A stretch of 56,808 bases of DNA, taken from positions 1 through 56,808 of the IMG/VR virus record IMGVR_UViG_3300020202_000006, one strand, 5' to 3'. Position 1 is the stretch's first letter. Every line of letters begins with the position of its first letter. Below are positions 10,601 to 42,726 of this stretch, piece by piece. The translations under genes were made by a program, and so were the position numbers. Below the pieces are notes generated by a model that saw nothing but the letters and a program-made list of their open reading frames with translations, made no database searches and was not told where the DNA came from. The DNA is from a virus (taxonomy: Duplodnaviria; Caudoviricetes).

Positions 10601-12219
10601 AGGCGGGCGGCGTCGGCCCGCACCCGGGCATCGTCCACGTCCAGGCCCGCCGCCTTGAGCCGCGCCGTCTCCGCCGCGACCATCTCGTCGGTTCGCCTGC
10701 TGATCGGCCCCAGGAGGCGGTTCCGTTCGGCTAACGCCGACCGCCATTCATCGGTGTATTCCTGGGCTTTTGACGCCATGGCGTCGTAGCGGGCTTGTGC
10801 GGCCTCCCAGAGCCGGGCCTGGTGCAAGTGCAAGGCCGCCTCGGGGCTCTCAAGCGTCCCAGCGGCCATCGTAGGGCTTGCCTGCGCCTGCTTGAGACGT
10901 TCCAGCCCGGCCTCGAACCCCCGCTTCACCTCGTTGAGCCGTCCCAGGGTCTCGCCCCGGCGGAACTGCCGGGTCGCCTCGTCCATCTCGCCCGGGGCGT
11001 CGAGGGTGGGGAGCGCGGGGCGGTCCAGCCCCTCCAGGGCGTCGGTCAGGTCGTCCCACTCGTTGGCGTAGGCGTCGAGCTGGGCGGTGATGTCCTGGGC
11101 CGCGGCGGGCAGGGGGCCGATGGCGCGGGAGGGATCCCCGGCGTACTGCCCGGCGCGGGCGAGGGTGCCGGCGGCCATGCCCGTCAGCGCCGCCCCCGTG
11201 AACGCGGGGACGCGCAGCCCCACCTCGGTGAAGGGGATGTGGGCGAGGGTGGTGCCGGCGCGGATGCGGCCGGGGCCGCCCGAAGAGAACTCCACGCCCA
11301 TCCTGCCCGTGTTCACGTCGCGGCCGATGCGGACGCCGGGGGCTGCGTCGGGGCCGAACTCGCGGAGGAAGGCGCGGGCGGCGGGGTTCCCCTGCGGCTC
11401 CAGGGCGTCGGCGATGAGCCCGCCCTTGCGCGTGGGCTCCAGGCCGATGAACTCCGCGGCCTTCTTGGGCTTGCCGGCGCCCCCGAGCAGGCGCGTGGAC
11501 AGAGAGGAGCGCAGGCGCTTGGCCGCGTCCTCGGGCGAGACCCCGGCCTTGGCGTACGCCCCGCGCAGGCGGTCCACGGCGCCGGGCTTGGCCGCGGCGT
11601 CGATGACCCCCTGCACCACGGGGCTGCGGACGGCCTGGCCCCGCGCGTACGCCTTCACGCCCGTTTCGAGGGCCCTTCGGCCGCGGGCGCCGACCTGCGC
11701 GACCTTGCCGCCGCTGGAGACGGCGCGGGCGCCGAACCCGGCCCCGCCCGCGTAGGTGAGCGGGTCCATCGCCACGTCGCCCACGAAGCCCACGACGCCG
11801 CGGATGACGCGGTTCTCCACGCCCAGGTCGTCGAGGATGTCCGAGAACCGCACCGTCCCCATGCCGAAGGTGCCGGTGTCGCCCGACTCTCGCTTGCGGC
11901 GCGCGATGCCCGGGGCGATGACGTTGGCCAGCGTGTTGCGGGGGAGGTCGAGGAGATCGAGGAACTTGGTGACGGGGCCGCGCTGGTCGAGCTTGGTGGT
12001 GCGGAAACGCGACCGCAGCGCGTCGATGTCGCTGTCGTTCAGCTCCTCCACGCTCATGCGCGGGACGGCGCGGAGGTCCTGCACGCCCGGGGGCGCCTTC
12101 GCCCGCGTCTCGGCCACCAGCGAATCGACCATGAGCCGGCGGGCGGGCTTGGGTAGGTCAAGATTAGGGATTGCGTCGAGCGAGTCCGGCTGTAGGATTG
12201 ACGTTGAGAGCGTGGACAT
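7612..12219 (-). CDS. Large internal virion/DNA ejection protein, 1535 aa (LPD38-like C-terminal region)
   Basis: Ala-rich helical protein; C-terminal HFDMADLT..ESQVFRRLFPFYSWMK and GREFFTKRTI motifs recalled from large ejection proteins. Confidence 0.7.
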   Translation of the reverse strand: MSTLSTSILQPDSLDAIPNLDLPKPARRLMVDSLVAETRAKAPPGVQDLRAVPRMSVEELNDSDIDALRSRFRTTKLDQRGPVTKFLDLLDLPRNTLANVIAPGIARRKRESGDTGTFGMGTVRFSDILDDLGVENRVIRGVVGFVGDVAMDPLTYAGGAGFGARAVSSGGKVAQVGARGRRALETGVKAYARGQAVRSPVVQGVIDAAAKPGAVDRLRGAYAKAGVSPEDAAKRLRSSLSTRLLGGAGKPKKAAEFIGLEPTRKGGLIADALEPQGNPAARAFLREFGPDAAPGVRIGRDVNTGRMGVEFSSGGPGRIRAGTTLAHIPFTEVGLRVPAFTGAALTGMAAGTLARAGQYAGDPSRAIGPLPAAAQDITAQLDAYANEWDDLTDALEGLDRPALPTLDAPGEMDEATRQFRRGETLGRLNEVKRGFEAGLERLKQAQASPTMAAGTLESPEAALHLHQARLWEAAQARYDAMASKAQEYTDEWRSALAERNRLLGPISRRTDEMVAAETARLKAAGLDVDDARVRADAARLVHQDAMAKADGRAARLLDMSPEQVEARTKVADLLNQRVEAASRLAQVMKGPLAQTMAKGDADLAGASKMLLGLDNNDMFGPVKMAARAVFGKDSGVALGLGDVLDDVRGGVRRVFGEAPGRVRESARALKRASNPRTSHARQDALNGLYREAVDLAKAHGLPATKADELLELATVLAYKERDPAMGIFGPDDAVWDVLQDAAASATLDERVHPGLRTALEKLAKKNVDLLDDLADFDAVGVGREAYVPNVLTPEARRALTGQFGAFGETLRRGGANPAGGVAGRVAEAFERPRSTLYLDVPNPETGQPERFYGFEKVYTSFGPEDVAQLTPAAAAHVADVQRRWKLVQDSAAGLGLDADAMEWKPLSVFEINRLARRGALAPLTGGAELGRGFFETNLATMLAGRTMQSERKYRREMMESLLQRHALPVNDQELMTIARREGPLTYRLQNGAVARVLDGGEAIEIGGVRYRKPKVAKGVVDLLGHDSRVETAYLPDDMARVVEDTLAPFASEDAARGLLKLSDEATKLWKATTLLSPSWTVFDTVGGLIQSLSAVGDPVRVGKWLLPALRATFGKGDATVSVAGRQINVAELLTDPAVRGAVAEGSMGEEALVQMLADGSARLPSQATPFTGPWFKELREAAKKNTEIAAVGSRMAKVKGFRQIHEMKGLVLDEAYLRRVFGPWGRLNAKVNSWIRTTTLLALLDQGDDVASAAEKVVRSHFDMADLTRAESQVFRRLFPFYSWMKNSGVYGVRQLLSDPKYVTLAPHTAHALEEMTAGEEAIPEHLRPRWMRDQMAVQIGTDPETRYGLTLGSALPQETGMRAAAALLGAEGAQELMEYFVSSLAPVPRVIGELGGGREFFTKRTISAREGEGDLTPSEYLLGQVRPLRELGVGQARRGPTVRAFEQGLGEGAGRLLLGGRFQPMDDERVRFGLLRQFSEQERAIRKRINLLEREGQDSLPERARLLKLWEQMEQAGLGDEVPKYGARQLEAVR

Positions 12220-12247
12220 GGGGCAGAATCCCTACAGGAGCGGGGCC

Positions 12248-12577
12248 ATGAGCGCGAGACCGTTTACGTGGTGGTGGCCGTCGAGCACTCCCGGGAAGGC
12301 GGCGATGTGGGCCGTCATCGGGTTGTCGTCGCTCACGGTGCTCGTCGCCGGCCCGTTCGCGGTCATCAACGTCGCGTTCTGGTATCTGGTGGCCGTCGGA
12401 GCGAGATTCATCGGCATCAAGGCGACCCACGGCGGCGGCACGCCAAGCGAGCCCACCGCGAGACGCGGCCCTGACAGGTCATCGGAGGTCATTGCGGCCG
12501 TCGGTATGACCATCGGCGGGCTCGCGGTCATGGGCATGGTCGTCGCCGCTATGGCGTACCTGATGGCGTGGGCTTGA
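12248..12577 (+). CDS. Multi-pass membrane protein inserted antisense between the ejection genes
   Basis: Three hydrophobic segments; alternative start at 12218. Confidence 0.6.
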   Translation: MSARPFTWWWPSSTPGKAAMWAVIGLSSLTVLVAGPFAVINVAFWYLVAVGARFIGIKATHGGGTPSEPTARRGPDRSSEVIAAVGMTIGGLAVMGMVVAAMAYLMAWA

Positions 12578-14138
12578 CGAAGCCCTGGAGCGCCGACTTG
12601 ATGGCGCCATGCACCGAGCGGGCGACGTTGCTCTGCGTCGTGGCGATCCCGGCGCCGGGCTGAAGGAACGTCGACCCTAGGCCAGCGATGTTGAGACCCG
12701 CGAAGGCGCCGGGCTCCTCCATCTGGCCGAGGATGTCGCTCGCCTGCTGCGCCGCAAGAGCGGGATGCAGCTTGGCGAGTTGCTGAAGGCGCGGCAGCAC
12801 ACGCGTGTTGAACATCTCCATCGCCCGCTGAGGATCGGATCCGCCGGCAGCGCTAGCGATGTTGGCGGCGTCCTCCTTCCACGCGAGCATTTCGTCGGGG
12901 CTCGTGAACCCGGCCTGGATGATGGCGGCGTCTCGCGCTTGCTGGTCGTAGGCCGCGCCCTCGGGCGTGGCAGCGCCGGGGTTGGCGGCCTGGGCCTGCT
13001 GACGGCGCCGGTACTCGGCCTCGGCGATGCGGTTGCCTAGCGCGATCTGGTCCGTCTGCGCGCCCACGAGCCCGGCCTGCGCCGTCTTGAGCGGGTCGCC
13101 CTGCGCCCGCGCCGCCGCGGCCTCGGCGAGCTTGCGCCCCTCCAGGTCCAGCTCGGCCTGCTGCCAGGGCTGCAACGGCTGGATGCCCAGCGTGCGGTTC
13201 TTCTCCGCCTCCTGCTGCGCCAGCGCCTGCCCGCGGTTCCCCTCCGCCAGCGCCCCCGCGTGCTGCCCGCGCCCCTCGCGCTCGCGGGCCCAGATGTTGT
13301 ACTCCAGCATCGCCTCCTGCATCCGCGCCTGGTCCGCGAGCCTCGCCTTCTCCGCGTTCTCGCGCTGCGCCGAGGTCGTCTCGGGGCCCACCGGCCTGTT
13401 GAAGTACGCCTCCCCCTCCTTCATGCGCCTCAGGAGATCGTCGGCCTGCCGCGCGTACTCGCCCGCCTGGGGCGTCCCCGGCGTCGCGCCCGCGAGGTTC
13501 CTGGCGACCCCCGCGGCGTCGTCGCGCAGGATGCCCTGGAGCTGCCCGCCCAGCCGCCGGCGGTTGGCGGTGTTCTCCTCGGGGCTGAGCACCTTCTTGG
13601 GGGCGCCGGGCGTGGTGGCCCGGCGGTAGGCGTCCATCTCGGACCCCATCGCGCGCACCTCGTCGGCCCGCGCCGAGAACTCGGTCTCGCGCGGCCCGCC
13701 CACGGGCGTCATGATCTTGTCGTTGATGAGCTGGCGTTGGGCCGCCTTGTGCCGCGCCCGCAGCTCGGCCAGCTCCCGTCCGGTGTCCGGGGCGCCGCGC
13801 TCGGCCATCCTCACGTCGCCCGCGCCCGCGGCGGGGGCCATCGGGCTCGCCTGGGTGGGCGGGGCCGCGTTGGGCCTCATGGCGCCGTAGGGACCGACGC
13901 CCAGGCGCCGGTCCTCGGCCATGATGGCGCCCTGCTTCATCAGGTCGGCGCGCCACCCCTCGTTGCTGTTCGGATCCAGGGGCCCGCGGGTGAGCGACGG
14001 GCCGGCGGGCGCCGTGGGCCGCCCCTCACGGATGTCGGCGGTCTGGAGGGCCGGGCCGCCGGGGGGCACGGGCTTCTTCTTCTTGGGCTGGGTGCCGAAC
14101 CTGCCGATGCCGTAGTCCGTGGCGCCTTCATAGGTCAT
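12549..14138 (-). CDS. Putative ejection/pilot protein, 529 aa
   Basis: Ala/Gln/Gly-rich, coiled-coil, no Cys; directly upstream of the 1535-aa gene. Confidence 0.6.
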   Translation of the reverse strand: MTYEGATDYGIGRFGTQPKKKKPVPPGGPALQTADIREGRPTAPAGPSLTRGPLDPNSNEGWRADLMKQGAIMAEDRRLGVGPYGAMRPNAAPPTQASPMAPAAGAGDVRMAERGAPDTGRELAELRARHKAAQRQLINDKIMTPVGGPRETEFSARADEVRAMGSEMDAYRRATTPGAPKKVLSPEENTANRRRLGGQLQGILRDDAAGVARNLAGATPGTPQAGEYARQADDLLRRMKEGEAYFNRPVGPETTSAQRENAEKARLADQARMQEAMLEYNIWAREREGRGQHAGALAEGNRGQALAQQEAEKNRTLGIQPLQPWQQAELDLEGRKLAEAAAARAQGDPLKTAQAGLVGAQTDQIALGNRIAEAEYRRRQQAQAANPGAATPEGAAYDQQARDAAIIQAGFTSPDEMLAWKEDAANIASAAGGSDPQRAMEMFNTRVLPRLQQLAKLHPALAAQQASDILGQMEEPGAFAGLNIAGLGSTFLQPGAGIATTQSNVARSVHGAIKSALQGFVKPTPSGTP

Positions 14139-14245
14139 CAGAGAACCCCTTGCTGGGTCCTCGCTCGGTGAATCCTAGGCGTAGAAACGACAACGCCCCG
14201 CCTTTCGACGGGGCGCGAACACTCCACCTACGCATGGCAGGCGAG

Positions 14246-14560
14246 CTAAGGGACTTTACCCACGTCGATGCCCAGCTTCCGCCACGCCCGCGCGAGGGTG
14301 GCGCGGGGCACGCCCGTTTCCTTGCTCGCCCGCACGCGGCTCATGCCCCCCTTGACGAGTTCGGCGGCCCTGCGGACGGCGGCCTCGTCGAAGGCGGGCT
14401 TGCGGCCGGGACTCTTGCGCCGCGGCCCCCGCACGGCCTCGCGGGCGACCTTGCGCACCACCGCCATGAAGTCGCGGTAGAACTCCGCCGTCCAGCCCGG
14501 GGGCAGCGGGAACGTGTCGGGGTCGGGCTCCGGCCCCCTTTCGAGGTCTGGCGCCGTCAT
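14246..14560 (-). CDS. HTH DNA-binding protein (resolvase/Hin-type HTH)
   Basis: GRKPAF...LVKGGMSRVRASKETGVPRATL. Confidence 0.7.
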   Translation of the reverse strand: MTAPDLERGPEPDPDTFPLPPGWTAEFYRDFMAVVRKVAREAVRGPRRKSPGRKPAFDEAAVRRAAELVKGGMSRVRASKETGVPRATLARAWRKLGIDVGKVP

Positions 14561-14742
14561 GGGCTCACCCGCGCGAGGAGGGCGCGCAGCGGGGCCACGT
14601 CGCCGGCCTCTCTGAAGGCGTCCCATTTGCACTCGTCGTACTTCTCCTCGCCGGCGCGGTCGAACGCATCGACCACAAGGCGGAGGGCGGCGATGGCCTC
14701 TTCCAGCGTCGGGGGGCCCACTTTGGGGGTCTGGTCGCTCAT
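14557..14742 (-). CDS. Hypothetical protein
   Basis: MSDQTPKV..., overlapping stop/start with neighbours. Confidence 0.6.
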   Translation of the reverse strand: MSDQTPKVGPPTLEEAIAALRLVVDAFDRAGEEKYDECKWDAFREAGDVAPLRALLARVSP

Positions 14743-14942
14743 TGATGCTCCGCGTTGAGCCTGGCGACGTCCTTGAGCGCGCGCTGATAGTGGCGGCCCC
14801 TGTTCGCCCCCCATGTTCCATCTGGCAAGACGGCCCGGTAGCCGGCACGGTGGCCGCAGAGAACCCCGACCCAGGCGAGGCCCCGTTGCCTCCGCGCCCT
14901 GTCGCGCCCCGTTGCCGGGACCATGCCATCGTCAAGCCGCAT
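14739..14942 (-). CDS. Hypothetical early protein
   Basis: SD GGAG upstream; MRLDDG... Confidence 0.55.
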   Translation of the reverse strand: MRLDDGMVPATGRDRARRQRGLAWVGVLCGHRAGYRAVLPDGTWGANRGRHYQRALKDVARLNAEHQ

Positions 14943-15009
14943 TGCTCGCTCTCCTGGGTATACTCGCTCGCCCGCGGGGGGGCGTTCTCCACCCTCGGGC
15001 ACTGCCGGG

Positions 15010-15047
15010 GCCCCGGGCGTTGTCAAGTGCCGCCCGGGGCTCTTTTC
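15010..15047 (+). terminator. Intrinsic terminator facing against the early array
   Basis: GCCCCGGGCG...CGCCCGGGGC followed by TCTTTT. Confidence 0.55.
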
Positions 15048-15083
15048 AATCCGCCCCGCCGAGTTCCCCCGGCGGAGTGGGGT

Positions 15084-15302
15084 TTACCAGCCTTTCGCGT
15101 TCCACTCGGCGAACGTGGAGTTGGCAGGCTCGCGGGATTCCTCCACCGTCGGGGCGCGGCCGTTGCGGTCCTTCGGCCCGTAGGCATCCGTGAGCACCGC
15201 CAGCGCCTGCGCCGCCTCTTCGCGGGTCGGGAACCGCGTGCGTCGGTCCAGCCCCGTGTTCTCCATCGCGCCGCTTTCCACGTACCAGCTCGTCGCTTCC
15301 AT
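15084..15302 (-). CDS. Hypothetical early protein
   Basis: AAGGAGCGAGCG-ATG; MEATSWYVES...FPTREEA. Confidence 0.7.
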   Translation of the reverse strand: MEATSWYVESGAMENTGLDRRTRFPTREEAAQALAVLTDAYGPKDRNGRAPTVEESREPANSTFAEWNAKGW

Positions 15303-15331
15303 CGCTCGCTCCTTTCTGGGCGGGAGGGGGA

Positions 15332-15559
15332 TTAGTCGAACATGATCCATCCGACCTCGACGGGGCCGCGCTCTTTGTACCTCTTCCACAGTCCGGGGCC
15401 GTCCAACCCCCGCTTCTTCGCGCCGTTGTAGAGCATTTCGGCGCTGTACGCCGGATTTGCGGACGCGAGGGCTTGGCAGACCACCGACAGCTCCGCGTTC
15501 CCTTTGGCGCGGGATACTCCGGCCTTCTTCACGGCGCCCTTGGCCTTGGCAAACGTCAT
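15332..15559 (-). CDS. Small basic early protein
   Basis: AAGGAGCGAGC-ATG. Confidence 0.7.
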   Translation of the reverse strand: MTFAKAKGAVKKAGVSRAKGNAELSVVCQALASANPAYSAEMLYNGAKKRGLDGPGLWKRYKERGPVEVGWIMFD

Positions 15560-15623
15560 GCTCGCTCCTTTGGATGAGAGTCTAAACCACGCCGGGCCCG
15601 GTGGGGCGCGGCGGGGTGGGGGC

Positions 15624-16028
15624 TCACTCGCGCTCTGTGTTGAAGAGCAGGTTCCGGTACTCGTCGTCGCCCAGGAACACCTTGAGCTTCACGGACTGCT
15701 GAACGCACGTCTTGTACGTCTTCTCGGCCTTGCGGCTGTCGGTGTCTAGTCCGAACTCGCCCGCCCAGTCCTCGAAGCCCTTGGCGTTCTCGACGCTCGC
15801 GGCGTCCGACCCCACGCAGTCAAGCACGGTCGCCAGGCCGGGCGGCTCCCCGTGGTGCCCGCGGCCCATGCTGAAGGGGATGGTGAGCATCCGACGCCCC
15901 TTGCGGATCCGGCAGCGCCAATGGTCCATGTCGGCCCCGTCGTCCATGTTCGGGTTGCTGTCCGCCCACTCCGCCTTCATCGTCAGCCCCAGTCGCGCAA
16001 TGAAAGCCGCTACAGTCTCGGTTGCCAT
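15624..16028 (-). CDS. Conserved-looking phage early protein
   Basis: GGAGG SD; PFSMGRGH..PP...VLDC..SDA...FEDWAGEFG.DTDSRKA motif recalled from phage hypothetical proteins. Confidence 0.8.
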   Translation of the reverse strand: MATETVAAFIARLGLTMKAEWADSNPNMDDGADMDHWRCRIRKGRRMLTIPFSMGRGHHGEPPGLATVLDCVGSDAASVENAKGFEDWAGEFGLDTDSRKAEKTYKTCVQQSVKLKVFLGDDEYRNLLFNTERE

Positions 16029-16149
16029 ACCGGGTTACCTCCGGTTGTGGTCCGGGGCGCTTCCGTTCCAGCGGTCGCGCCCCTTTGATGTCCGCCCACG
16101 GCGGGCGGGAAGCGCCCCGTTCCCCGTCGGGGGAGCGGGGCGGGGTGGG

Positions 16150-16251
16150 TTAGAGGACCGATGTTCGCCATCCGAAGCCGACGGCGCGCGACGCTAGGTG
16201 TGACGCTATCTCAACGGGCCCCATGCGGGTCATGGGATGCATGTTCCCCAT
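16150..16251 (-). CDS. Possible 33-aa cassette ORF
   Basis: Flanked on both sides by array-type intergenic elements; no SD. Confidence 0.3.
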   Translation of the reverse strand: MGNMHPMTRMGPVEIASHLASRAVGFGWRTSVL

Positions 16252-16307
16252 ACCGCCCCGCCGGGGCGGGAAACCTCCCCCGCGCCGGTGGGCGCGGGGC
16301 GGGTGGG

Positions 16308-16562
16308 TCAGGCGCCAAGCCTCTTTGCCAGCCCTGCCACCGACCCGGCGCAGAGCGTGAGCCCGTCGTCGAAGGCGTAGCACAGGGCATCGGGCATGGT
16401 CTTCGCCAGCCACCGCACGCACTCTTTGCGGTTACGGAAGTCGTGGCGCCATCCGCCGTCGGCGGTCAGGCCCATGCGGCCGCCCTCGGGCATCGACACA
16501 TAGGCGCGGCCGCCGGGGATGGACGGGTGTTCAACGTACTCGGCGTAGACCGATGCGAACAT
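16308..16562 (-). CDS. Hypothetical early protein
   Basis: AAGGAGAAC SD after the conserved hairpin. Confidence 0.75.
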   Translation of the reverse strand: MFASVYAEYVEHPSIPGGRAYVSMPEGGRMGLTADGGWRHDFRNRKECVRWLAKTMPDALCYAFDDGLTLCAGSVAGLAKRLGA

Positions 16563-16632
16563 GTTCGTTCTCCTTGTGTCCCTGCCAGGGACAAACCGAC
16601 CCGGCCCCGTTGGGGGTCGGGTGGGTGGGGGG
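16563..16632 (-). repeat. Array intergenic element (C-tract, hairpin 1, GTCCCTGGCAGGGAC, SD)
   Basis: Near-identical to 17428-17499. Confidence 0.9.
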
Positions 16633-17091
16633 TTAGACGCACGACCAGAGCAAGGACCACTTGCCATCGTCGCGCCGGTACAACTCCAGGTTGCCGTGGT
16701 CAGAGACGTGCAGGAACAGGGAGCCGTTCTGCGCGTCCTCCGGGAGCTCATCCCCGCTGTCGAGGCTCCCGTCGCGCCGGTCCTCGTCCACCCTATCGAG
16801 GTCGGGCCACCACCCGAAATCGGCGCCGTCGCCGGGGTGAGTGCCGAAGTACACGTAGTCCGGGGCGAATCCATTTAGCGCGTCCTGAAGATCGGCCAAG
16901 AGTTCGTCGGCATCCTCCTCCGAGCGAACGTCGCCGGTCTCCTCGTCGAGCCCGTCCCAGCCGTCCGCTTCCTTGACGAGCCTGTGGTCGGGATCGAGCC
17001 TGCGGAGTTCGTCGGCGAACACAGGCAGGAGGTCAGAAAAGCGGAGGGTGCCCAAGGAGACGCTGCCGAGGGTGATGTGTACGCCGGTCAT
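16633..17091 (-). CDS. Highly acidic early protein
   Basis: GSVSLGTLR..DLLPVF and YFGTHPGDGADFGWW motifs; Asp/Glu-rich. Confidence 0.8.
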   Translation of the reverse strand: MTGVHITLGSVSLGTLRFSDLLPVFADELRRLDPDHRLVKEADGWDGLDEETGDVRSEEDADELLADLQDALNGFAPDYVYFGTHPGDGADFGWWPDLDRVDEDRRDGSLDSGDELPEDAQNGSLFLHVSDHGNLELYRRDDGKWSLLWSCV

Positions 17092-17121
17092 GTTCGGACC
17101 TTTCAGAGAGGTTCGGACCTC

Positions 17122-17156
17122 GCCCCGGGACGCGCCAACGTCGCCGGGGCTTTTTC
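17122..17156 (+). terminator. Intrinsic terminator facing against the early array
   Basis: GCCCCGG...CCGGGGC followed by TTTTT. Confidence 0.6.
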
Positions 17157-17220
17157 ATGCTCCCGCCAAGGAGTATGGTCACAAGCCGACCCGGCCCCTT
17201 TCGGGGCAGGGTGGGTGGGG

Positions 17221-17427
17221 TTAGCAGTACGCGCTCTCGCGCTTCAGCTTGTCCTCGTCCTCGTCGCGCCGCGTCGCGCGGAGGGTGTGCGGCTCGCGGT
17301 TGAAGTCGCGGGCGTGCATCCGTATCGCGTCCTCCGCGGACGCCACGCGGTAGTACCGCCCTTCGCGCCACGTCCCGTCGGCGTTGCGGATCTCGACGAG
17401 GTACAGGTGGGTCTGGGTCGTCATCAT
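17221..17427 (-). CDS. Hypothetical early protein
   Basis: AAGGAGAAC SD after the conserved hairpin. Confidence 0.75.
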   Translation of the reverse strand: MMTTQTHLYLVEIRNADGTWREGRYYRVASAEDAIRMHARDFNREPHTLRATRRDEDEDKLKRESAYC

Positions 17428-17499
17428 CGCCGTTCTCCTTGTCGTCCCTGCCAGGGACAAGCCGACCCGGCCCCGTTGGGGGTCGGGGAGGGGTGAGGG
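17428..17499 (-). repeat. Array intergenic element
   Basis: CCCGACCCCCAACGGGGCCGGGTCGG-CTT-GTCCCTGGCAGGGAC-GACAAGGAGAAC. Confidence 0.9.
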
Positions 17500-17739
17500 T
17501 CAGTTGGCGAAGTGGTACTGGCCGGCGGGGTCGGGCGTGAGAGCGAACACCTCGCAAGGCCGGGCGCTGTCCGTCATCATCACCGGAACCCCGCCGAGCA
17601 GGTAGGTGGTCCACGTCCGCGCGTCGGGCGTCCCCTCGCCCATCGTGCAGCGGCGGATGCGCCACCCGTCCGCGGGCTTGCCCTTCAGGAACGCATCCAC
17701 CTGACCCTTGCTACGCATCGACGTTTCACTGTACCGCAT
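17500..17739 (-). CDS. First gene of the early array, hypothetical
   Basis: GGAGAAC SD; directly after the promoter and hairpin 17755-17769. Confidence 0.7.
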   Translation of the reverse strand: MRYSETSMRSKGQVDAFLKGKPADGWRIRRCTMGEGTPDARTWTTYLLGGVPVMMTDSARPCEVFALTPDPAGQYHFAN

Positions 17740-17776
17740 CGGTGTTCTCCATTCGTCCCTGCCAGGGACTGACCAC

Positions 17777-17806
17777 AATATACCGCACTCCATCGGGCAG
17801 TGTCAA
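17777..17806 (-). promoter_or_regulatory. Strong sigma70-type early promoter TTGACA-18-TATATT
   Basis: TGTCAA at 17801-17806, AATATA at 17777-17782, AT-rich upstream tract. Confidence 0.8.
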
Positions 17807-17957
17807 CGACAAATCCCCAGAATCCAAAAGAATTCTGTCCACATCGCACCAACCCCAGGGTGGAAATCCGACTTTTGCCCTAATACGATCAGGAAAAAAG
17901 CAGTACTGCTCCTCCTCGGGAGCGGAGCGGACGAGAAGAAGGACTCGGGTGCGCGCA

Positions 17958-18290
17958 CTACTCCCCGTAGACAGCAGGACGCGCCCGGACAACCACATCG
18001 TCCATGCCGCCTGACGGCGGAGAAGTAGAAGAAGCAGGAGCGCGCGAGGCCCAATAGCCGCGCACGACGTCGAGAGGGTCACGGCCGGACTGGCGACAAC
18101 GCCGGTTCAGCTGCTTGGCGTAGTTCGACAGCGCACGCGCGAGTACGTCGTCGGCCGTCGTCCCTGGCTCCAGGACACGCGCGATCGCGCACAGCTCGTA
18201 GAAACGACGACGGGTCGAGTCCGATACCCAGCCGATGCTCCCCGATGATGTAGTTCGACGACGGGTCGAACGCGACATCGGAGAGGGCAT
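17958..18290 (-). CDS. Hypothetical protein, possibly ribbon-helix-helix-like
   Basis: WVSDSTRRRFYELC...TADDVLARAL pattern; start uncertain. Confidence 0.45.
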   Translation of the reverse strand: MPSPMSRSTRRRTTSSGSIGWVSDSTRRRFYELCAIARVLEPGTTADDVLARALSNYAKQLNRRCRQSGRDPLDVVRGYWASRAPASSTSPPSGGMDDVVVRARPAVYGE

Positions 18291-18376
18291 GGATGAGAAC
18301 CTTCAATCTCGCGTGTTCTCGCGTCGGTTCACCCCGTCACCGTCATCGTCCCCAAGTGCGATACCCCCATCAACGA

Positions 18377-18404
18377 TGTCCCGATAACAGCGTTTATGTA
18401 AAGC
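18377..18404. other. dif-like XerC/XerD recombination site
   Basis: TGTCCCGATAA-CAGCGT-TTATGTAAAGC: 11-6-11 layout with the ATAA-N6-TTATGT core of dif. Confidence 0.7.
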
Positions 18405-18554
18405 AGATGCGTTCGGGACAAGGGGCGTAACCGACCGTGGGATAAGGGGTTGCGTGTTCGGGTGCGGAGACGTGAGTGCTGGCGAGTGTACCGCGGACGG
18501 GGTGACGAAGAGGGGGGGACCAACCCCACACGGGGGGCCTCTTCACGATGATGA

Positions 18555-18836
18555 TTACCGCCTCTCACAACTCGAAAGCGGTTTTGGGAAGTTGGTCCCG
18601 TCGGTGAGATCGGCGACGAGTCCGCCGAGGGTGTGGGTGCCACGGGCGCTCTCCAGCAAGTTGGCGTAGTGCTGCTGGACGACGCGCAGGGCGTCCGGGG
18701 TGCAGGCAGACGGGGGCGGGTTGGTGTTCATCGACGGGTCCGGGTAGGCGTGACGCCAGGGATCGGGCGTGACCGGGTCGGGAGTGAAGACGACGCGCCC
18801 GTGCTCGGGGTCGTGGTAGACGAGGTCGTCGTTCAT
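18555..18836 (-). CDS. Hypothetical protein
   Basis: ATGA overlap; C-terminus TNFP...SSCER shared with the upstream gene. Confidence 0.6.
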   Translation of the reverse strand: MNDDLVYHDPEHGRVVFTPDPVTPDPWRHAYPDPSMNTNPPPSACTPDALRVVQQHYANLLESARGTHTLGGLVADLTDGTNFPKPLSSCERR

Positions 18837-19033
18837 CGCTGCTCCCTCTCACAACTGGAGACCAAAACGGGGAAGTTGGTGTCGCCGGGGCCGGGCCACC
18901 CGAACTCGATGTGGACGCGGTGGCCGGGGATGCGAGACCAGCCGGAGGCCGCGGGGGGCGTCGGTGGCGGGGTGGGCGCCGACTTCCAGGGGTGAGAGAC
19001 CCAGGCGGGTCGGTTGTCGTCGATGGCGTTCAT
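18833..19033 (-). CDS. Hypothetical Pro-rich protein
   Basis: GGAGCAGCG-ATGA overlap. Confidence 0.55.
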   Translation of the reverse strand: MNAIDDNRPAWVSHPWKSAPTPPPTPPAASGWSRIPGHRVHIEFGWPGPGDTNFPVLVSSCEREQR

Positions 19034-19368
19034 CGCTGCTCCGAACGTTGGGGGTCTCGGGGGAGGGGGAGCCACGACGGGGTCCACGGCGCGGGTTCAA
19101 CATGGAAGACTGCGCCAGGCTCGGCGATCCGGGCAAGCTCGTCGTACAGGGCTGCCGTGTCCTCGGCCTCGGCGAGACGGCGGAGGAGGCGTTCGGCCTC
19201 GACGCGGACATTGCGGAGGTTGCAGCCCAGAAGGGAGCACCCGCAGGGTCGCAGGTCGTCCGAGATGGTGTGGACGGCCTGGTCGCCGATCTTGTGCCGC
19301 AAAACCGCCTCGAAGGCGTCCAGGGCGGAGAGGATGGGCTGGGGCACGGGGTTGCGGTTCTGGCTCAC
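19030..19368 (-). CDS. Hypothetical protein
   Basis: GTGA overlap with upstream stop. Confidence 0.6.
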   Translation of the reverse strand: MSQNRNPVPQPILSALDAFEAVLRHKIGDQAVHTISDDLRPCGCSLLGCNLRNVRVEAERLLRRLAEAEDTAALYDELARIAEPGAVFHVEPAPWTPSWLPLPRDPQRSEQR

Positions 19369-20318
19369 CGGCGGGCTCCCTTCGGCTTGGGCTTGGCCTT
19401 CTTCTCCAGGGCGTCCAGCCGCATCTGCATCATGTCGAGGGCGTGGTCCCAGCAGGTGGGGAGTTCGCCAAGAAGTGCGGTCATGGCCTCCAAGCCCTTG
19501 AGCCGCTGGGCGTTGCCATTGACCGTCTGGCGGAGTTCCGCGATGGCCCGCTCCGCCCCCTCGGCCTTGTTCTTGGCGACGGTGACCATCGCCTGGAGGG
19601 CCTTGACCGCCTCCTGCTGGAGCTTCAGGTGCTCCGCGGCCTGGGCTTCGAGGGCGGTGATGCGGTGGTTCAGCGCGGCTACCGCGTCGGCTGTGCCGTT
19701 GGCCCAGGCGGCGGACTTCGTCAGGTTGTAGACCTTCTCATCCAGGGCGGCGATGCGGGCCAGGGTTTCGAGCAGCCGGCCCTCGGCCTGATCCAGCCGT
19801 CGGCCTATGGCCTCCCGTCTGTAGGCGCCGTTCTCGACGGCCATCTCCATCCGCCGCTCCATCTCCGCCATCGCCGCCGCCTGCGCCTTCATCTTCCCCT
19901 CCACGGCCGCGATCCGCTCCTCGGGGGTGGGCTTGGCGGGCCGCTGGAGGTCGGCGTGACAGGCTTTGTTGACGTAGTCGACATCGGCGTGCAGCAGCCC
20001 TCGCTCGTCGGTCGAGGGCTTGGCGGCCTTCTCGGCCTCCGCCGCCTTCGCGCCGGCCTGCTCCGCCATCCACTCCTCGGCGGTGATCCAGCCAGTCCCG
20101 GGGGACCAGTACGACTTGGTCCCGTTGGCCTTCCAGCCCTCGATCTTTATGTCCACCGACGGCTGGCTCGTGAAGGTCAGCGTGCCCCCGGTGCCGGAGA
20201 CGGTCTTGCCAGCAGCGGGGGGCGGCGGCGGCTCCAGCCGGCGGATGCGGCCGAAGGCGTCCGCGATGTCGCGGCGAAGGTCGCCCACCTGACGACGAAG
20301 TTCTTTGATCCCGAACAT
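19365..20318 (-). CDS. Long coiled-coil protein
   Basis: CAGGAGCGAGCACC-ATG; heptad-rich. Confidence 0.75.
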   Translation of the reverse strand: MFGIKELRRQVGDLRRDIADAFGRIRRLEPPPPPAAGKTVSGTGGTLTFTSQPSVDIKIEGWKANGTKSYWSPGTGWITAEEWMAEQAGAKAAEAEKAAKPSTDERGLLHADVDYVNKACHADLQRPAKPTPEERIAAVEGKMKAQAAAMAEMERRMEMAVENGAYRREAIGRRLDQAEGRLLETLARIAALDEKVYNLTKSAAWANGTADAVAALNHRITALEAQAAEHLKLQQEAVKALQAMVTVAKNKAEGAERAIAELRQTVNGNAQRLKGLEAMTALLGELPTCWDHALDMMQMRLDALEKKAKPKPKGARR

Positions 20319-20448
20319 GGTGCTCGCTCCTGAGAACCGGACAGCATAGGCGGGTGGACGCAATTCGTCCACGCGGCAGGGGTATACTCTACGGCGGGGA
20401 TGTTGTGTCCACCATTGCTTCGGGCCCGTTGCTTGCGGGGGTATCGCC

Positions 20449-20886
20449 ATGCCGTCGTACCAGGAAATGACCTTCACCGCGGCGAGCGCCAACATCACGG
20501 CGGGCGCGTCGTGGCAGAAGCTCGTCTACACGCCCGGCAACGACCTGCCCGGCTCGGCGGCGGGCGGCCACCAGTCCTGCGTGGTGCTGGCCACGTCGAA
20601 CCAGTCGTCGGGGAGCGCCACCATCGCCTTCCGCTGGGCCCTGAAGAACCAGTCGCTCGACTGCGTGTGGCAGGACAAGAGCGCGTCGGTGACGGTCACG
20701 ACGACGCGGACGGACCTGGACGGGGACAGCGGGAACTACATCTGCACGGTCGCGTTCGACGACGGGTCCAACTTCGTGGACCTGGCGCCCCAGGGGCAGG
20801 AGTTCGACATCTGGGTCGGCTGCTCGGCGCTCACGACCATCACGTCGCTGGCCGTCCGCGTCCAGCCCAAGCGGGTGACGGGATGA
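20449..20886 (+). CDS. Hypothetical beta-rich protein, first gene of the late operon
   Basis: Strong GC3 bias; Thr/Ser/Val-rich. Confidence 0.75.
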   Translation: MPSYQEMTFTAASANITAGASWQKLVYTPGNDLPGSAAGGHQSCVVLATSNQSSGSATIAFRWALKNQSLDCVWQDKSASVTVTTTRTDLDGDSGNYICTVAFDDGSNFVDLAPQGQEFDIWVGCSALTTITSLAVRVQPKRVTG

Positions 20887-21035
20887 CCTTCACCGACCCC
20901 CTCTGCTACGGCGTCTTCTCGCTGTGCGGCCTGCGGCTGTCCGTGCTCGTCGCGCAGCGCGAGACGTGGACGTGGTGGGACGGCGACCCCGACCCCCTCT
21001 TCCCCGACGCCCCCCACGTGGAGCGAGCCCGATGA
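20883..21035 (+). CDS. Small hypothetical protein
   Basis: ATGA overlaps at both ends. Confidence 0.55.
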   Translation: MTFTDPLCYGVFSLCGLRLSVLVAQRETWTWWDGDPDPLFPDAPHVERAR

Positions 21036-21238
21036 CCATCAGCCGCGTCATCTACGACGACCGCGAGTTCCTGTCGGCCGTCACCGGAGACCGCGACGAG
21101 GCGCTGCGCTTCGAGGCCCCCGAGGGCTTCCGGCCGTTCCCGCCCGCCGGCGTGCGGTGGTACTGGGCGCCCGGCGATCGGGGCGGCGGGTGGCGCTTCG
21201 ACCTGTACCGCGACCGCGTGGCGGAGGGCGCGGACTGA
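21032..21238 (+). CDS. Small hypothetical protein
   Basis: ATGA overlap; ends 1 nt before the terminase gene. Confidence 0.6.
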   Translation: MTISRVIYDDREFLSAVTGDRDEALRFEAPEGFRPFPPAGVRWYWAPGDRGGGWRFDLYRDRVAEGAD

Positions 21239-21239
21239 G

Positions 21240-23543
21240 ATGTCCAAGCCCCGCGACGAGTCCGCGCTCCTCAACGCCGACATCCCGGAGGGGTTGCAGG
21301 CCATCCTCGACGAGATCGGCCGCGCCCCCCCGCGCGTCGACGGCCACGCCAACCCCGAGCACTACCGCCGCCGCCTCGCCCGCCTCTCCGCCACCAGCGA
21401 GTGGTTCAACGAGCGCGGGGGCGCCATCCCCTTCAACCTCGAATCCGCCCACAAGATGATCTACCGCGAGGCGGAACTCGCCGGCATCGACGCCAAATCG
21501 CTGGCCGACGCCCGCTCCGAGGGCGACAAGATCCGCGACGCCGCGGAGATGCTGAAGGAGATCCCCGACGCCGTGTGGGAGGTCCCCTCCGCCGAACTCC
21601 GGCGCATCCTTGAAGAGATGGAGTCGGCCAAGGACCTCGCCAAGAACCTCATCGACTCCCGCCGCAAGCCCATGACCAGCGAGGAAGAGATGCGCTGGCA
21701 GGCCATGACGCACGCCGAGAAGCAGCGAGAACGCCGGGGAAAAGCCCTTTGCGCCCTGATGCGGGGAGTGCTCAGGGCGCGGGAGCTGGCGAGCAACCCG
21801 AACCCCCCGGGAGTCAAGAACGGCCCGTGGTGGGAGGCGACGCACGTGCTCCGGGTGATGCTCTACGTGGGCCGGAGCAACATGACCAAGAGCAGGGCGG
21901 CCGATGAGGCGGGCGGCGCGACCGTCTTCCTCATGGCCCCGCACCTCGTGCGCTACGCCGTGGACACCTGGGAGGCGCGCAACGGCGTCCAGTACGACCA
22001 GCACGGCCCCCGCCGCGGCGTCTTTGACTACAAGGGCGTCGTGCTCATCGCCCCGATGGGCCACTCCAAGACGGAGTACGCCGAGCACTGGCTGGGCACC
22101 GAGATCGCCATGAACCACCGCACGCAGGCGGCGTACCTGCACGCGATCGAGGAGAAGGCGATCGAGCCCAAGGAGTACGTCCACAACCTCTTCCGCACCT
22201 CCACGGCGTCCGGCCGACGCATGGCCGCGCTCTTCGGGCGGGTCGAGTTCGACAGGAAGGACAACAACTCGACGACGATGAGGCTGAGGCTCGACAGGCG
22301 GCTCAAGAGCCCCACACTCCAGGCGTGCGGCGTGATGAAGAAGGGCCTGGGCGGGAACACCAACATCCAGATATGGGACGACGTGGTCCCCCAGAGCGAC
22401 CGCGACAGCGAGAGCGAGCGCGAGCGCCGCAAGAAGCAGCTCCACATGACCTGGGCCAGCCGCCAGCGCGGCAACGGCACGTTCATCCTCGCCATCGGCA
22501 CGCTCTGGCACAACGACGACGCCCTGTCCGAACTCGTCAAGCAGGGGAAGAAGGGCTCGTTCCTCATCTCGGTGCAGCGCACGGGCGGCCCCACGAGCAG
22601 CCCGCCGTTCTTCCCGCTCTGGCCGGAGGTGTACCCGGCGGCGGAGCTGCGGAAGAAGTACAACAACCTCCGCGACCGGGCGCTCTGGGCGGCGTGCTAC
22701 GAGGCCAACCCCATCGCGGAGGACATGCGGGTCGTCAAAAGGATCCGCTTCTACGACCCCGACAGCCCCGAGCACCGCCGGTTCGTGGACTCGTGCTTCA
22801 AGGCCCTGTCCCTGGACCCAGCCGCCACGGCGAAGGTCGAGAACGACAAGGCGGGGTTCCTCTACGCGGGCATCGGCGAGGTCTCCGTGGAAACAGACCG
22901 CGACGGCGTGAAGGTCCGCGAGTACCAGAACCGCGTGCGGATCCTCCAGGCCCGCCAGTTCCACGCGACCCAGAGCGCGCTGGTCACGGAGGCCGAGGCG
23001 TTCCTCGCCTCCCATGCCGTGGACAGCGTTCTGGTCGAGACCCGCGGCGGGTATCACGCCACGGCGGAGATGTTCGAGAACAGGTACGGGCTGCCTGTCG
23101 AGCGGCGCGACCCCACGAACACGAAGAAGCTGCAACGTCTCAAGCAGTGCGCGGGGCTCATCGAGCACGGGAACCCCGGCATCGACGCCGTGGTGGAGTT
23201 CCCGGGCAAGTGGAACGAGGACCGCACGGAACTCGTGCCCGACGAGAACTTCAGGGACCTCTACAAGCAGATCCTCGACTTCGGCATCGAGTCCGAGGAC
23301 CACCTGATCGACACGCTGACCCAGCTGCTGATCTGGGCGATGGAGGAGGGGCGGGTCACGGCGGGCGTGGGGATGGCGAGCGCCCTGGTGCGCCGGGCCG
23401 TGGCGGAGGCGGGGGATTCGCGGCTGCTGGGGATGTACAAGCAGGCCGAGGCCCCCGAGAACCACAGGAAGACGGTGGAGGAGGAGGACGGCGACTTTCT
23501 CTGCAACCGCCTCGCGCCCTACTTCGGCGCGACGCTCAACTGA
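21240..23543 (+). CDS. terL: Terminase large subunit with long N-terminal extension
   Basis: Walker A-like APMGHSKT, Walker B IQIWDD, coupling motif IGTLWHNDD, nuclease LSLDPA and DHLIDTLTQ. Confidence 0.9.
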   Translation: MSKPRDESALLNADIPEGLQAILDEIGRAPPRVDGHANPEHYRRRLARLSATSEWFNERGGAIPFNLESAHKMIYREAELAGIDAKSLADARSEGDKIRDAAEMLKEIPDAVWEVPSAELRRILEEMESAKDLAKNLIDSRRKPMTSEEEMRWQAMTHAEKQRERRGKALCALMRGVLRARELASNPNPPGVKNGPWWEATHVLRVMLYVGRSNMTKSRAADEAGGATVFLMAPHLVRYAVDTWEARNGVQYDQHGPRRGVFDYKGVVLIAPMGHSKTEYAEHWLGTEIAMNHRTQAAYLHAIEEKAIEPKEYVHNLFRTSTASGRRMAALFGRVEFDRKDNNSTTMRLRLDRRLKSPTLQACGVMKKGLGGNTNIQIWDDVVPQSDRDSESERERRKKQLHMTWASRQRGNGTFILAIGTLWHNDDALSELVKQGKKGSFLISVQRTGGPTSSPPFFPLWPEVYPAAELRKKYNNLRDRALWAACYEANPIAEDMRVVKRIRFYDPDSPEHRRFVDSCFKALSLDPAATAKVENDKAGFLYAGIGEVSVETDRDGVKVREYQNRVRILQARQFHATQSALVTEAEAFLASHAVDSVLVETRGGYHATAEMFENRYGLPVERRDPTNTKKLQRLKQCAGLIEHGNPGIDAVVEFPGKWNEDRTELVPDENFRDLYKQILDFGIESEDHLIDTLTQLLIWAMEEGRVTAGVGMASALVRRAVAEAGDSRLLGMYKQAEAPENHRKTVEEEDGDFLCNRLAPYFGATLN

Positions 23544-25061: not shown

Positions 25062-27119
25062 GTGCAGTTCAAGAACCCGGCGCAGTTCAAAGACTTCATC
25101 ACCGAGGCCCGCAGGAGCGCCGAGGGCTATCGCCTCGCCCTGGCCCAGCGCACCGCCATCGACGAGTGTTATTACGAGGCCGTCCAGTGGCTCACCGACG
25201 CGGCCTCCCGCTACGGCCACCTCAACACCTCCACCGGCCAGCTCTACACCTCCATCAACCCCGACATCCCCAAGCTCCGCGTCACCCGCAACCGCGTCAC
25301 CCGCTACATCTCGCAGGTCGCCGTCGCCACCCGCCCCGAGCGGCTGGAGTACAGCGTCCCCCCCTCGCCCCGCGACGCCGGGCCCGCCGGCGCCCACAAG
25401 GCCCAGCTCCTCGAAGACCTGCTCACCGCCGCGTCCGACGCCTGCGGGCTCGTCGAGGCCGCCCGCGTCGCCAACTTCCGCCGCTGCGTCACCGGCACCT
25501 ACGGCCTGGGCCTGGCCGCCAAGATCCAGCCCCGCCGCCTCTCCATCGCCGGGCAGGACGTGCAGATGCGGGACTCCAAGGTGGAGGCGTTCGCCTTCCA
25601 CCCCCTGCGGCTGGTCCTGGACCCCCACAACCAGAGCCCCGACCTGCGGCGACACGAGTACGTCGCGTACACCGACGTGTGGTCCGCCGCCAAGATCCGC
25701 CGGATGTACCCCGGCGTCACGCTCGACGAGAACATGCTCAAGACCGTGGGGAGCCTGACGCCCCACGAGCAGAACGCCCACGCGCTCAGCGCCGGGCGTC
25801 TCTTCCGGCGCTACGCCGACATGGCGAGCACCAAGGGCGCCCGCGTCTACCAGCTGCACTGCAAGGACGAGACGGGCCGCTTCGGGCTGATGTACTGCGC
25901 CATCGAGACCGCCGACGGCGAGTACCGGGTCGTCAATATGGAGGAGCCCGTCAGCCCCTTCGGCGGGTGCGGGCTCCCCCTGGTCCTGCTGCACGCGACC
26001 CCCCGCGCGGACGCGATGTGGTCCGTCTCGGACGTGTCGCTCATCAAGGACGACCAGGACTCGGTCAACCTGGCCTACTCGATGTGGTGGCGGACGCTCC
26101 AGCGGTACACCGCCCCGCAGTGGGTGGTGGACCTGCGGTTCTTCGGGAACCCCTCCCAGACCGAGGACGTCACCCACCTCTTCCACAACAAGGTCGGCGC
26201 CATCATCCAGGGCAAGCCGACGATGGACGCCAAGCCCCCGCAGCTCGTGGCGCCCCCGCCCCCGCAGGCGGCGATCATGGAGTCCGCCGACCGCGCCGAC
26301 CGGGACATGGCGGCCAACACCAGCGTCCCCGACCAGAAGTACGGCCAGGGCGTCAAGAGCCACGTCCCCGACGCCGCGTACCAGACCCTCCTCCGCCAGG
26401 CCGACCACAAGCACGCCGCCCGCGTCAGCGACGACAGCGCGGCCTACGTCGCCTTCGCCCAGATGCTCCTGGGCACCACCCTCCGCGAGGTCCACGCGCA
26501 GACCCCCTCGACGCTGGCGATGCTCGCCAAGGCCGGATTCGACGGGGAGGATTTCTCGGCCCTCCTGGAGTGCGACCCCGGCGCCGACTACGCCGTCGAA
26601 CTCAGCGAGAGCAGCGTGCGGTTCCGGTCGGCGGCCGAGAAGCGCGAGGAGTTGCAGACCGCCGCCCAGGTCCAGATGGTCACGCCGTACCAGTACCGCC
26701 GGGCGATGGCGGACCTGGACATGGCGCTCACCACCGAGGACGCGGAGATGACGCGGAAGATCCAGCGCGCCATCGTCCGCCTCTTGCAGGGCGTCCCCTG
26801 GCGGCCCCTGGACCTGGGGGAGTTCAACGAGTGGTGCCTGGCCGAACTCCGCAAGGCCCAGTTCGACCGCCGGGCCGAGCAGGACGAGTCCGTGGCGACG
26901 CTGGTGCAGGAGGCCATCGCCGTCCAGACCCAGCTCGGCGTCCAGGCGGCCATGATGCAGGCCCAGGCCGAGGCCCCCCCGGCCCCGCAGGCGGCCCCCG
27001 GGGCGGATACGCAACAGAATACGCAACAGCCGCCCCAACTCCTGTCCGATGTGTTGGCTATGCTATCGGGTGAGACAAGCAATAGCGGCGGCCAGGCGGC
27101 CCAACCCGCTGTTGCGTAA
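25062..27119 (+). CDS. Portal protein (large, P22-like)
   Basis: 685 aa between terminase and scaffold; TRNRVTRYISQV and Gln/Ala/Pro-rich C-terminal tail. Confidence 0.8.
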   Translation: MQFKNPAQFKDFITEARRSAEGYRLALAQRTAIDECYYEAVQWLTDAASRYGHLNTSTGQLYTSINPDIPKLRVTRNRVTRYISQVAVATRPERLEYSVPPSPRDAGPAGAHKAQLLEDLLTAASDACGLVEAARVANFRRCVTGTYGLGLAAKIQPRRLSIAGQDVQMRDSKVEAFAFHPLRLVLDPHNQSPDLRRHEYVAYTDVWSAAKIRRMYPGVTLDENMLKTVGSLTPHEQNAHALSAGRLFRRYADMASTKGARVYQLHCKDETGRFGLMYCAIETADGEYRVVNMEEPVSPFGGCGLPLVLLHATPRADAMWSVSDVSLIKDDQDSVNLAYSMWWRTLQRYTAPQWVVDLRFFGNPSQTEDVTHLFHNKVGAIIQGKPTMDAKPPQLVAPPPPQAAIMESADRADRDMAANTSVPDQKYGQGVKSHVPDAAYQTLLRQADHKHAARVSDDSAAYVAFAQMLLGTTLREVHAQTPSTLAMLAKAGFDGEDFSALLECDPGADYAVELSESSVRFRSAAEKREELQTAAQVQMVTPYQYRRAMADLDMALTTEDAEMTRKIQRAIVRLLQGVPWRPLDLGEFNEWCLAELRKAQFDRRAEQDESVATLVQEAIAVQTQLGVQAAMMQAQAEAPPAPQAAPGADTQQNTQQPPQLLSDVLAMLSGETSNSGGQAAQPAVA

Positions 27120-29436: not shown

Positions 29437-29472
29437 TCCCCCTCGCGCTTCGCAAGGAGCGCGGGGGGTTTC
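29437..29472 (+). terminator. Terminator after the capsid gene
   Basis: CCCCCTCGCGCT...AGCGCGGGGGG-TTT. Confidence 0.55.
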
Positions 29473-42690: not shown

Positions 42691-42726
42691 GGTGTCCTCC
42701 CCGCGGGAACGCAGCGGATGGGTGGG

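Follow-up and report, generated by a model that had tools for sequence, protein, structure and literature searches.

The spacers between the small, putatively early genes of one phage genome, the IMG/VR record IMGVR_UViG_3300020202_000006 (Duplodnaviria; Caudoviricetes), carry a repeated two-hairpin element whose closest precedents are the early operon of T7, the promoter-early stem-loop (PeSL) cassettes of T4-type phages and the SAS/ESAS sequences of cluster K mycobacteriophages. In T7, host-type promoters give rise to one polycistronic early RNA with hairpins between its cistrons, and the processed mRNAs keep a 3′ hairpin. PeSL cassettes, of which T4-type genomes hold about 50, each with its own σ70-like promoter, reach from the upstream stop codon to the next Shine-Dalgarno (SD) sequence and start codon and contain a stem-loop, often of poly-G and poly-C, that serves as a terminator or attenuator (PMC2839356). 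They have been proposed as joints for gene shuffling, and in phi1 and RB49 this has been shown (PMC2839356). SAS/ESAS are conserved, SD-containing sequences that directly precede the start codons of some non-structural genes, all of which share one orientation; in roughly half of the cases an inverted repeat whose spacer varies lies ahead of the sequence, and the account of them gives their role as unknown and thought to lie in translation initiation (PMC3203893).

The window analysed here is the complete virus record, 56,808 bases with direct terminal repeats. One predicted promoter is followed, on the minus strand, which holds all array genes and elements, by 10 or 11 small open reading frames (ORFs; g1–g11, 30 to 152 amino acids, aa), and the spacers after g1 to g8 (S1–S8; S0 is the promoter-bearing gap ahead of g1) follow a repeated, strand-specific design behind that single strong promoter (Table 1). 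An earlier description made from the letters of the DNA, the sequence-only reading, had made this its central claim, which is borne out; its array of short ORFs likewise stands, while its count of about nine does not, the array having 10 or 11 with g5 doubtful. A C-rich tract (C at 8 or more of 12 positions) opens all eight spacers and a first hairpin (H1), succeeded by CUU, UUU or AUU, is present in seven, but the complete order that had been described (stop codon, C-tract, H1, NUU, second hairpin or H2, SD, ATG) is found in only five of the eight, S1–S5. An H1-like hairpin followed by TT within 15 nucleotides (nt) of the stop codon occurs at 7/8 array gene ends as against 1/73 others (Fisher p = 1.8e-8), and a tract with C at 7 or more of 12 positions at 8/8 as against 11/73, on a descriptor that was drawn up after the array had been seen and with rough gene calls of our own outside it. 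A full-text search of published papers on repeated intergenic stem-loop terminators of bacteriophage early genes found no description of this layout.

The resemblance to the T7 early operon, that of one polycistronic RNA with intercistronic hairpins, is a functional analogy only, and in place of the single long, irregular RNase III hairpins of T7 the spacers here have a pair of short hairpins separated by a U run. Like PeSL cassettes, the spacers place a stem-loop between small early ORFs and extend from stop codon to ATG, and the promoter-bearing S0 also has its stem-loop downstream of the −10 hexamer; unlike them, only the first of the nine gaps has a promoter, and the repeated part would comprise a terminator, a leader hairpin and a ribosome site. 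As with SAS/ESAS, a conserved motif at the ribosome site has an inverted repeat ahead of it, but the H2 arms measure 6–7 base pairs (bp) rather than the 17 bp of ESAS, and three to six sites stand in one operon rather than 11–19 over half a genome. A search of the genome for the 13-bp SAS motif (PMC3203893) gave 18 matches with three mismatches, where 25.6 were expected, and none in the spacers. Coupling to a terminator, as proposed for the array spacers, does not feature in the passages that characterise SAS/ESAS sites (PMC3203893).

H1 has a constant form, with 12–13 pairs interrupted by 0–2 single mismatches, a tetraloop, a C-rich 5′ arm and a G-rich 3′ arm, and it begins 3–8 nt past the stop codon. 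The NUU after it is always present, and on the minus strand only; this one-sided U tail says that H1 would work in the sense of the genes. In the five copies that align without gaps over 34-nt windows, on which pairs were counted by script, mutual identity is 21–30 of 34 positions and 55 of 60 pair cells hold standard pairs, the five unpaired cells being two in S1, two in S2 and one in S4. Five of the 12 pairs are changed on both sides (AU to CG, CG to GC, GC to CG), so the pairing of H1 has been kept within the genome, a point in favour of the sequence-only reading; this is small but real support for H1 as a structure. A covariance model (R1) built from S1–S5 retrieved from the genome its five training copies and the unseen S6 (28.5 bits, E 1.6e-4, all pairs formed), whose H1 matches that of S3 at 25 of 34 bases, and nothing further better than E 0.2 except the reverse strands of the same elements. 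The same design of pyrimidine tract, GC hairpin, tetraloop and UUU follows other genes at 53636–53607, 53372–53343 and 29439–29468, the last of these after a capsid-region gene, which suggests that H1 is the ordinary terminator form of this phage, used sevenfold within 2.5 kb. A strand bias of G-U over A-C, tried as a test of RNA sense and counted by eye, gave about equal numbers and was uninformative.

H2 is an exact 15-nt palindrome in three copies, all within 1.2 kb and at the positions where it had first been noticed. The genome has no further copy with two or fewer mismatches, the plus-strand matches being the same palindromes, and shuffled sequences gave 0.27 matches on average, with 0/100 reaching six. 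In all three copies H2 lies 4–5 nt from GGAG, and GGAG 7 nt from ATG. Two variants had been pointed out in other spacers and are indeed present, in S2 and S4, and there is a third in S5; taken together, a hairpin stands 0–10 nt past the U run in five of the seven H1-bearing spacers (S1–S5), as against 19 of 81 background H1-like matches. S1 and S3 are nearly the same spacer twice over, their homology spanning stop codon to ATG between flanking genes that are unrelated, so that the three exact H2 copies do not represent three independent events. The S4 form departs from the main one at three of six pairs, each on both sides, but because both forms are perfect palindromes through the loop, kept pairing cannot separate an RNA hairpin, which the sequence-only reading had preferred, from a DNA site. 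A possible decayed H2 with ribosome-site remnant in S8 was set aside, its similarity being no better than that of shuffles (161/500), as was a σ54 promoter within H2 (TGGCA), for which no GC element stands at the right spacing.

The predicted promoter, which had been proposed as TTGACA-18-TATATT and matches at 11 of 12 positions, is the best of three σ70-like matches in the genome and the only one within 12000–21500; no spacer apart from its own gap has a match of at least 9/12. It sits in the deepest trough of GC content of the region (0.515 over 17700–17899, as against about 0.70), with an AT-rich stretch upstream at 17807–17900. The first H2 starts 8 nt past the −10 hexamer, at predicted position +2, and with +1 at the A of 17770 a single unpaired base is left before the stem, which agrees, as a matter of geometry, with the earlier placement of this copy at the transcription start. 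One free base before the stem is a known arrangement of 5′-terminal stabilising hairpins. The array is probably an immediate-early operon, read by host polymerase, of a novel phage.

The reading that we favour, at about even confidence, is that of a single-promoter operon punctuated by leaky terminators (H1), some of them followed by a copied leader hairpin and ribosome site (H2). The promoter would give a transcript of about 3.6 kb, from about 17770 to a terminator at 14193. H1 would be a factor-independent terminator of the phage's usual form, with a short U tail, and would stop only part of the polymerases; because no spacer has a promoter of its own, the H1 terminators must be leaky or overridden if the genes behind them are to be read. 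Partial stops would produce a gradient of expression falling along the array, and RNAs ending at H1 would keep a protective 3′ hairpin. H1 begins at so short a distance from the stop codon that its 5′ arm would lie beneath any ribosome completing the gene before it, and read-through may therefore depend on translation. H2 followed by GGAGAAC-N4-ATG would be the 5′ leader of the primary transcript, copied ahead of internal genes, as is suggested by the ribosome site that the internal H2 share with the first and by the likeness of S1 and S3 from stop codon to ATG. At the 5′ end H2 would protect the mRNA, and internally it would shield the ribosome site from the terminator upstream; were cleavage to take place in the U run, the RNA downstream of it would likewise begin with this protected leader.

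Several observations weigh against this picture. With seven serial terminators and no promoter in between, little transcription would reach the distal genes if the terminators were neither weak nor overridden. The tail of H1 has only 2–3 U, and none of the seven passes a terminator scan that requires 5 T in 8. Folding Z-scores reach −2.2 to −3.2 in S2, S4, S5, S6 and S8 but are −1.52 in S0, +0.26 in S1, −1.37 in S3 and −0.75 in S7, so that the spacers with an exact H2 fold no better than shuffles; at 70% GC, any shuffle of C-runs and G-runs folds well, and folding energy alone is accordingly unremarkable. The pairing evidence for H2 comes down to two sequence families that need not share an origin, and the exact copies are perfect DNA palindromes, a perfection for which an RNA hairpin has no need. 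A third set of hairpins (H3), in S2, S5 and S8, is left unexplained by leaky terminators. Early timing has the promoter as its single basis, and a search of sequencing runs found no RNA run containing the phage.

The perfection of the palindrome raises the main rival, improbable in our view, in which H2 acts as an operator at the DNA level: a phage regulator in dimeric form, for which g11 or the Xre-type helix-turn-helix protein beside the recombinase are candidates, would bind the 15-bp site at +1 and shut the promoter, and the internal copies would be auxiliary looping sites or roadblocks to elongation in the manner of the stoperators of cluster A mycobacteriophages. In its favour, the 7-1-7 symmetry is complete even at the bases of the would-be RNA loop, the three copies match at 15/15 with no degenerate copies elsewhere, and the first overlaps the start of the sole strong promoter, which a temperate phage must silence (a recombinase gene is present); moreover, one helix-turn-helix gene closes the operon and a second lies at 2423–2584. 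Stoperators are described as repressor sites across intergenic gaps that stop elongation, but also as asymmetric, bound by a monomeric repressor and spread over numerous genome sites (PMC9283540), whereas the three H2 sites are symmetric and confined to one operon within 1.2 kb; short repeated sites in intergenic gaps, one of them at the early promoter, make for a functional analogy only. It also tells against an operator that H2 occurs as single sites, never clustered, and neither near the two helix-turn-helix genes nor anywhere outside the array, that hairpins of other sequence occupy the same place in S2, S4 and S5, all of which one protein could not read, and that the second and third copies lie in near-duplicate spacers, where identity may reflect recent copying rather than selection. 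Were H2 instead read as RNA by a phage or host factor that makes polymerase resist the H1 terminators, as with boxB of the lambda nut sites or the put RNAs of HK022, the problem of seven serial terminators would be solved, and a hairpin at the transcript start that is repeated along a terminator-studded operon follows the logic of nut sites; antitermination is nevertheless very improbable here, given that H2 is a 6–7-pair stem with a 3-nt loop and not a 5-pair stem with a GNRA-like pentaloop, that the S4 and S5 variants differ in sequence, that no conserved linear box accompanies it and that Pfam and PHROGs recognise no N-like or Q-like gene. An endoribonuclease acting on the U run between H1 and H2 could, as the sequence-only reading had proposed, release monocistronic mRNAs, each with an H2 leader and an H1 end. 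The geometry fits: in S1, S3, S4 and S5 the short (C/U)UU is the one U-rich place left unpaired between the two stems, both of them stable. The primary transcript's leader is repeated in the internal H2 with its ribosome site, and RNase III cuts the early RNA of T7 at its intercistronic hairpins. RNase III of the T7 type prefers about two helical turns, however, and both H1 (12–13 pairs with 1×1 mismatches) and H2 (5–7 pairs) fall short of this; no nuclease gene is recognisable in the operon with Pfam and PHROGs, no RNA run found contains the phage, and three of eight spacers lack H2 and would fall outside the scheme, all of which makes cleavage unlikely.

Another unlikely reading takes the spacers as recombination joints, at which homologous exchange inserts, deletes or swaps small genes as at PeSLs in T4-type phages. 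S1 and S3 are alike only from stop codon to ATG, between unrelated genes, and if g5 is not a gene, two H1–H2 modules stand in tandem with nothing in between. Relatives of g6, found in 112 viral stretches of which 80 loci were kept, reach 60% identity, whereas no terminase relative exceeds 43%; none of the 80 loci has another array gene within 4 kb, and g3 belongs to virus-wide families. The array is thus a patchwork of genes that travel independently of one another, which early regions commonly are, but such mosaics of small genes are the rule there even with no special joint, and at 50–70 nt the repeats are on the short side for homologous exchange to be efficient. The flanks of the 18 best g6 relatives are tightly packed genes with no two-hairpin spacers, so that the element does not travel with the gene and belongs to this phage's operon rather than to g6, and there is no relative in which gain or loss is visible, the two runs that contain the phage being identical in sequence. 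Shuffling at PeSLs, with mini-circles, is documented in the T4-type phages that the source treats (PMC2839356). A promoterless, RNA-level counterpart of PeSLs, in which a nuclease cut in the U run is guided by H2, leaving a common leader and 3′ hairpin, and the repeats serve as gene joints, is decidedly unlikely; if true, it would involve a host or phage nuclease, and its joints would admit new host-takeover or anti-defence genes. Promoterless genes behind a single promoter, with imperfect hairpin-forming repeats between them, also recall integron arrays, and the sequence-only reading had called the array integron-like, a comparison that does not hold beyond loose analogy. There is no IntI, attC core or attI here, and the hairpins are oriented and tailed like terminators; the attC core GTTRRRY has 54 matches in the genome against 47 expected and none in the spacers on the gene strand, and the sole recombinase lies 12 kb from the array, its best NCBIfam score being 25 bits where the cut-off for an integron integrase is 220.

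Table 1. Positions of the array elements, the array genes and other features of the window
Feature	Position	Strand	Description
σ70-like promoter	17806–17777	−	TTGACA-18-TATATT
H2 copy 1 (S0)	17769–17755	−	then GAAU-GGAGAAC-N4-ATG
H2 copy 2 (S1)	17458–17444	−	then GACAA-GGAGAAC-N4-ATG
H2 copy 3 (S3)	16592–16578	−	then ACAA-GGAGAAC-N4-ATG
H2 variant of S2	17173–17160	−	CUCCU-UGGC-GGGAG, 5 pairs including one G-U
H2 variant of S4	16269–16253	−	17-nt perfect palindrome, 7 pairs, GGC loop
H2 variant of S5	16108–16092	−	6 pairs, 5-nt loop; stem sequence in common with the S4 variant
H1 of S1	17462–17491	−	CAAC loop, then CUU
H1 of S2	17186–17215	−	GAAA loop, then CUU
H1 of S3	16595–16626	−	12/12 model pairs formed, then UUU
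H1 of S4	16273–16304	−	CACC loop, then UUU
H1 of S5	16113–16142	−	7+5 pairs, one 1×1 mismatch, then CUU
H1 of S6	15586–15617	−	shape as S3, 12/12 pairs, then UUU; no H2 after it
H1 of S8	15051–15080	−	12 pairs including two G-U, then AUU
S7	15303–15331	−	short spacer with C-tract and SD only, no hairpin
H3 of S2	17122–17150	+	GC hairpin, then TTTTT
H3 of S5	16054–16083	+	hairpin, then TTTG
H3 of S8	15007–15043	+	hairpin, then CTCTTTTC
G-quadruplex motifs	15594–15622, 16129–16149, 16290–16307, 16612–16632, 17203–17220, 17478–17499	+	
Terminator-like site	14216–14193	−	end of operon; 10-pair stem, GAAA loop, T-rich tail
g1	17500–17739	−	79 aa, no family; exact public gene call
g2	17221–17427	−	68 aa, no family
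g3	16633–17091	−	152 aa, acidic (isoelectric point 4.1); phrog_29605, E 1.1e-7
g4	16308–16562	−	84 aa, no family
g5	16150–16242	−	30-aa ORF, doubtful; third-position GC content (GC3) 0.71, poor start context
g6	15624–16028	−	134 aa; phrog_4273 (unknown function), E 4.9e-22
g7	15332–15559	−	75 aa; start context GGAGCGAGC-ATG
g8	15084–15302	−	72 aa
g9	14942–14739	−	distal gene
g10	14742–14557	−	distal gene
g11	14569–14246	−	weak helix-turn-helix: HTH_7 E 3.9e-4 (below cut-off); phrog_664 E 1.4e-4
Tyrosine recombinase	504–2207		weak match
Xre-type helix-turn-helix protein	2423–2584		beside recombinase
1535-aa protein	7612–12219	−	downstream of array; no Pfam family
Large terminase	21240–23543		
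Portal	25062–27119		

The H3 hairpins stand in the three long spacers and have terminator form on the plus strand, facing against the array, where no plus-strand gene or promoter was seen. They could be the ends of antisense RNAs, relics of inverted genes or bidirectional blocks. Those of S2 and S8 resemble each other (a likeness equalled in 4/500 shuffles), and the shuffle comparison gives no support to the H3 of S5 as their homologue. A canonical four-run G-quadruplex motif with loops of 1–3 nt is present on the template (plus) strand in six of the eight spacers, five of the six ending at the base that adjoins the stop codon and the one at 15594–15622 falling one base short; across the genome such motifs number 23 on the plus and 7 on the minus strand. 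These motifs may arise simply from the C-rich tract and the hairpin arm, or may act as a block in themselves. Outside the array, the spacer at 42691–42726 (minus strand) is the sole one that opens with the same stop-CCCACCC tract as the array, which is followed by a small hairpin and SD.

Eight of the nine array ORFs that were looked up correspond letter for letter to public gene calls, and with Pfam and PHROGs 7 of the 10 array proteins scanned have no family at all; g3 is a member of virus-only families of unknown function. By contrast, g9–g11 are linked by ATGA overlaps, with no spacers, and they and the right-arm genes are tightly packed, with overlapping stops and starts and no two-hairpin spacers. 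A different conserved start context, GGAG(A)GCGAGC, precedes g7–g9. The g6 family (phrog_4273), which has an invariant DTDSR motif, is widespread in unrelated phages, those with g6 relatives ranging from 39 to 66% GC (first 20 of 80 loci). The structural model of g6 is confident (pLDDT 92.8) and consists of a three-stranded sheet packed on helices; compared with solved structures, it had no matches at E ≤ 0.001.

The phage is very novel, and none of the collections searched contains a close relative. The closest match to its terminase among 5.8 billion proteins is 43% identical. As a single-protein query against viral contigs the terminase found no match, and as an alignment query it found two viral loci at 43% identity, neither with such an array upstream, and no match in genome_contigs (185,579 species genomes); tblastn against GenBank phages and a search of viral contigs with the 1535-aa neighbour also returned no match. 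The exact H2 15-mer has 33 single matches in viral contigs, none related or in a similar context, and H2 with SD has 41 single matches in metagenome contigs, mostly within genes and none related. R1 had no matches in 83 phage loci or in the whole records of the two terminase relatives. A public protein collection contains 9 of the 10 proteins looked up (eight array ORFs and a 529-aa neighbour), all as singleton clusters. The nearest relative with terminal repeats (G002, L161) has a 13-nt repeat of its own in three copies, at about 14031, 17021 and 17139, in a non-coding stretch beside its only strong σ70-like promoter and unrelated in sequence to the array element.

The record as a whole has a GC content of 70%, three tRNA genes and a terminal repeat of 106 bp with an exact match, and two soil DNA runs, either of which may be its source, contain the stretch with 0 differences. 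Nothing in the analysis names the host, and the label of Planctomycete phage, which the sequence-only reading had assumed, finds no support. The first 127 bases (1–127) recur at 56158–56284, 545 bp before the right end, in addition to the terminal copy at 56703–56808; the right end may reflect a duplication of tandem-like form, or else a circular or concatemeric genome may have been misassembled there. The Atlas clusters nearest to the 1535-aa protein downstream of the array contain viral proteins only, and the closest one with a name has LPD38 (score 0.95, a lead only), which is a domain of large polyvalent phage proteins; the protein could be one that is injected to counter host defences.

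Most of the host-takeover and anti-defence genes that are still unknown lie in the early regions of phages, and the expression and exchange of such genes are understood in only a few model phages. The array presents a tidy alternative to the T4-type cassettes with a promoter for each gene: one promoter, a terminator-like hairpin per gene and some copied leaders. Its present value lies in a clear and testable design, whose mechanism we infer. If the hairpins set the level of expression or are cut, they would be natural insulators like those built by hand into synthetic operons.

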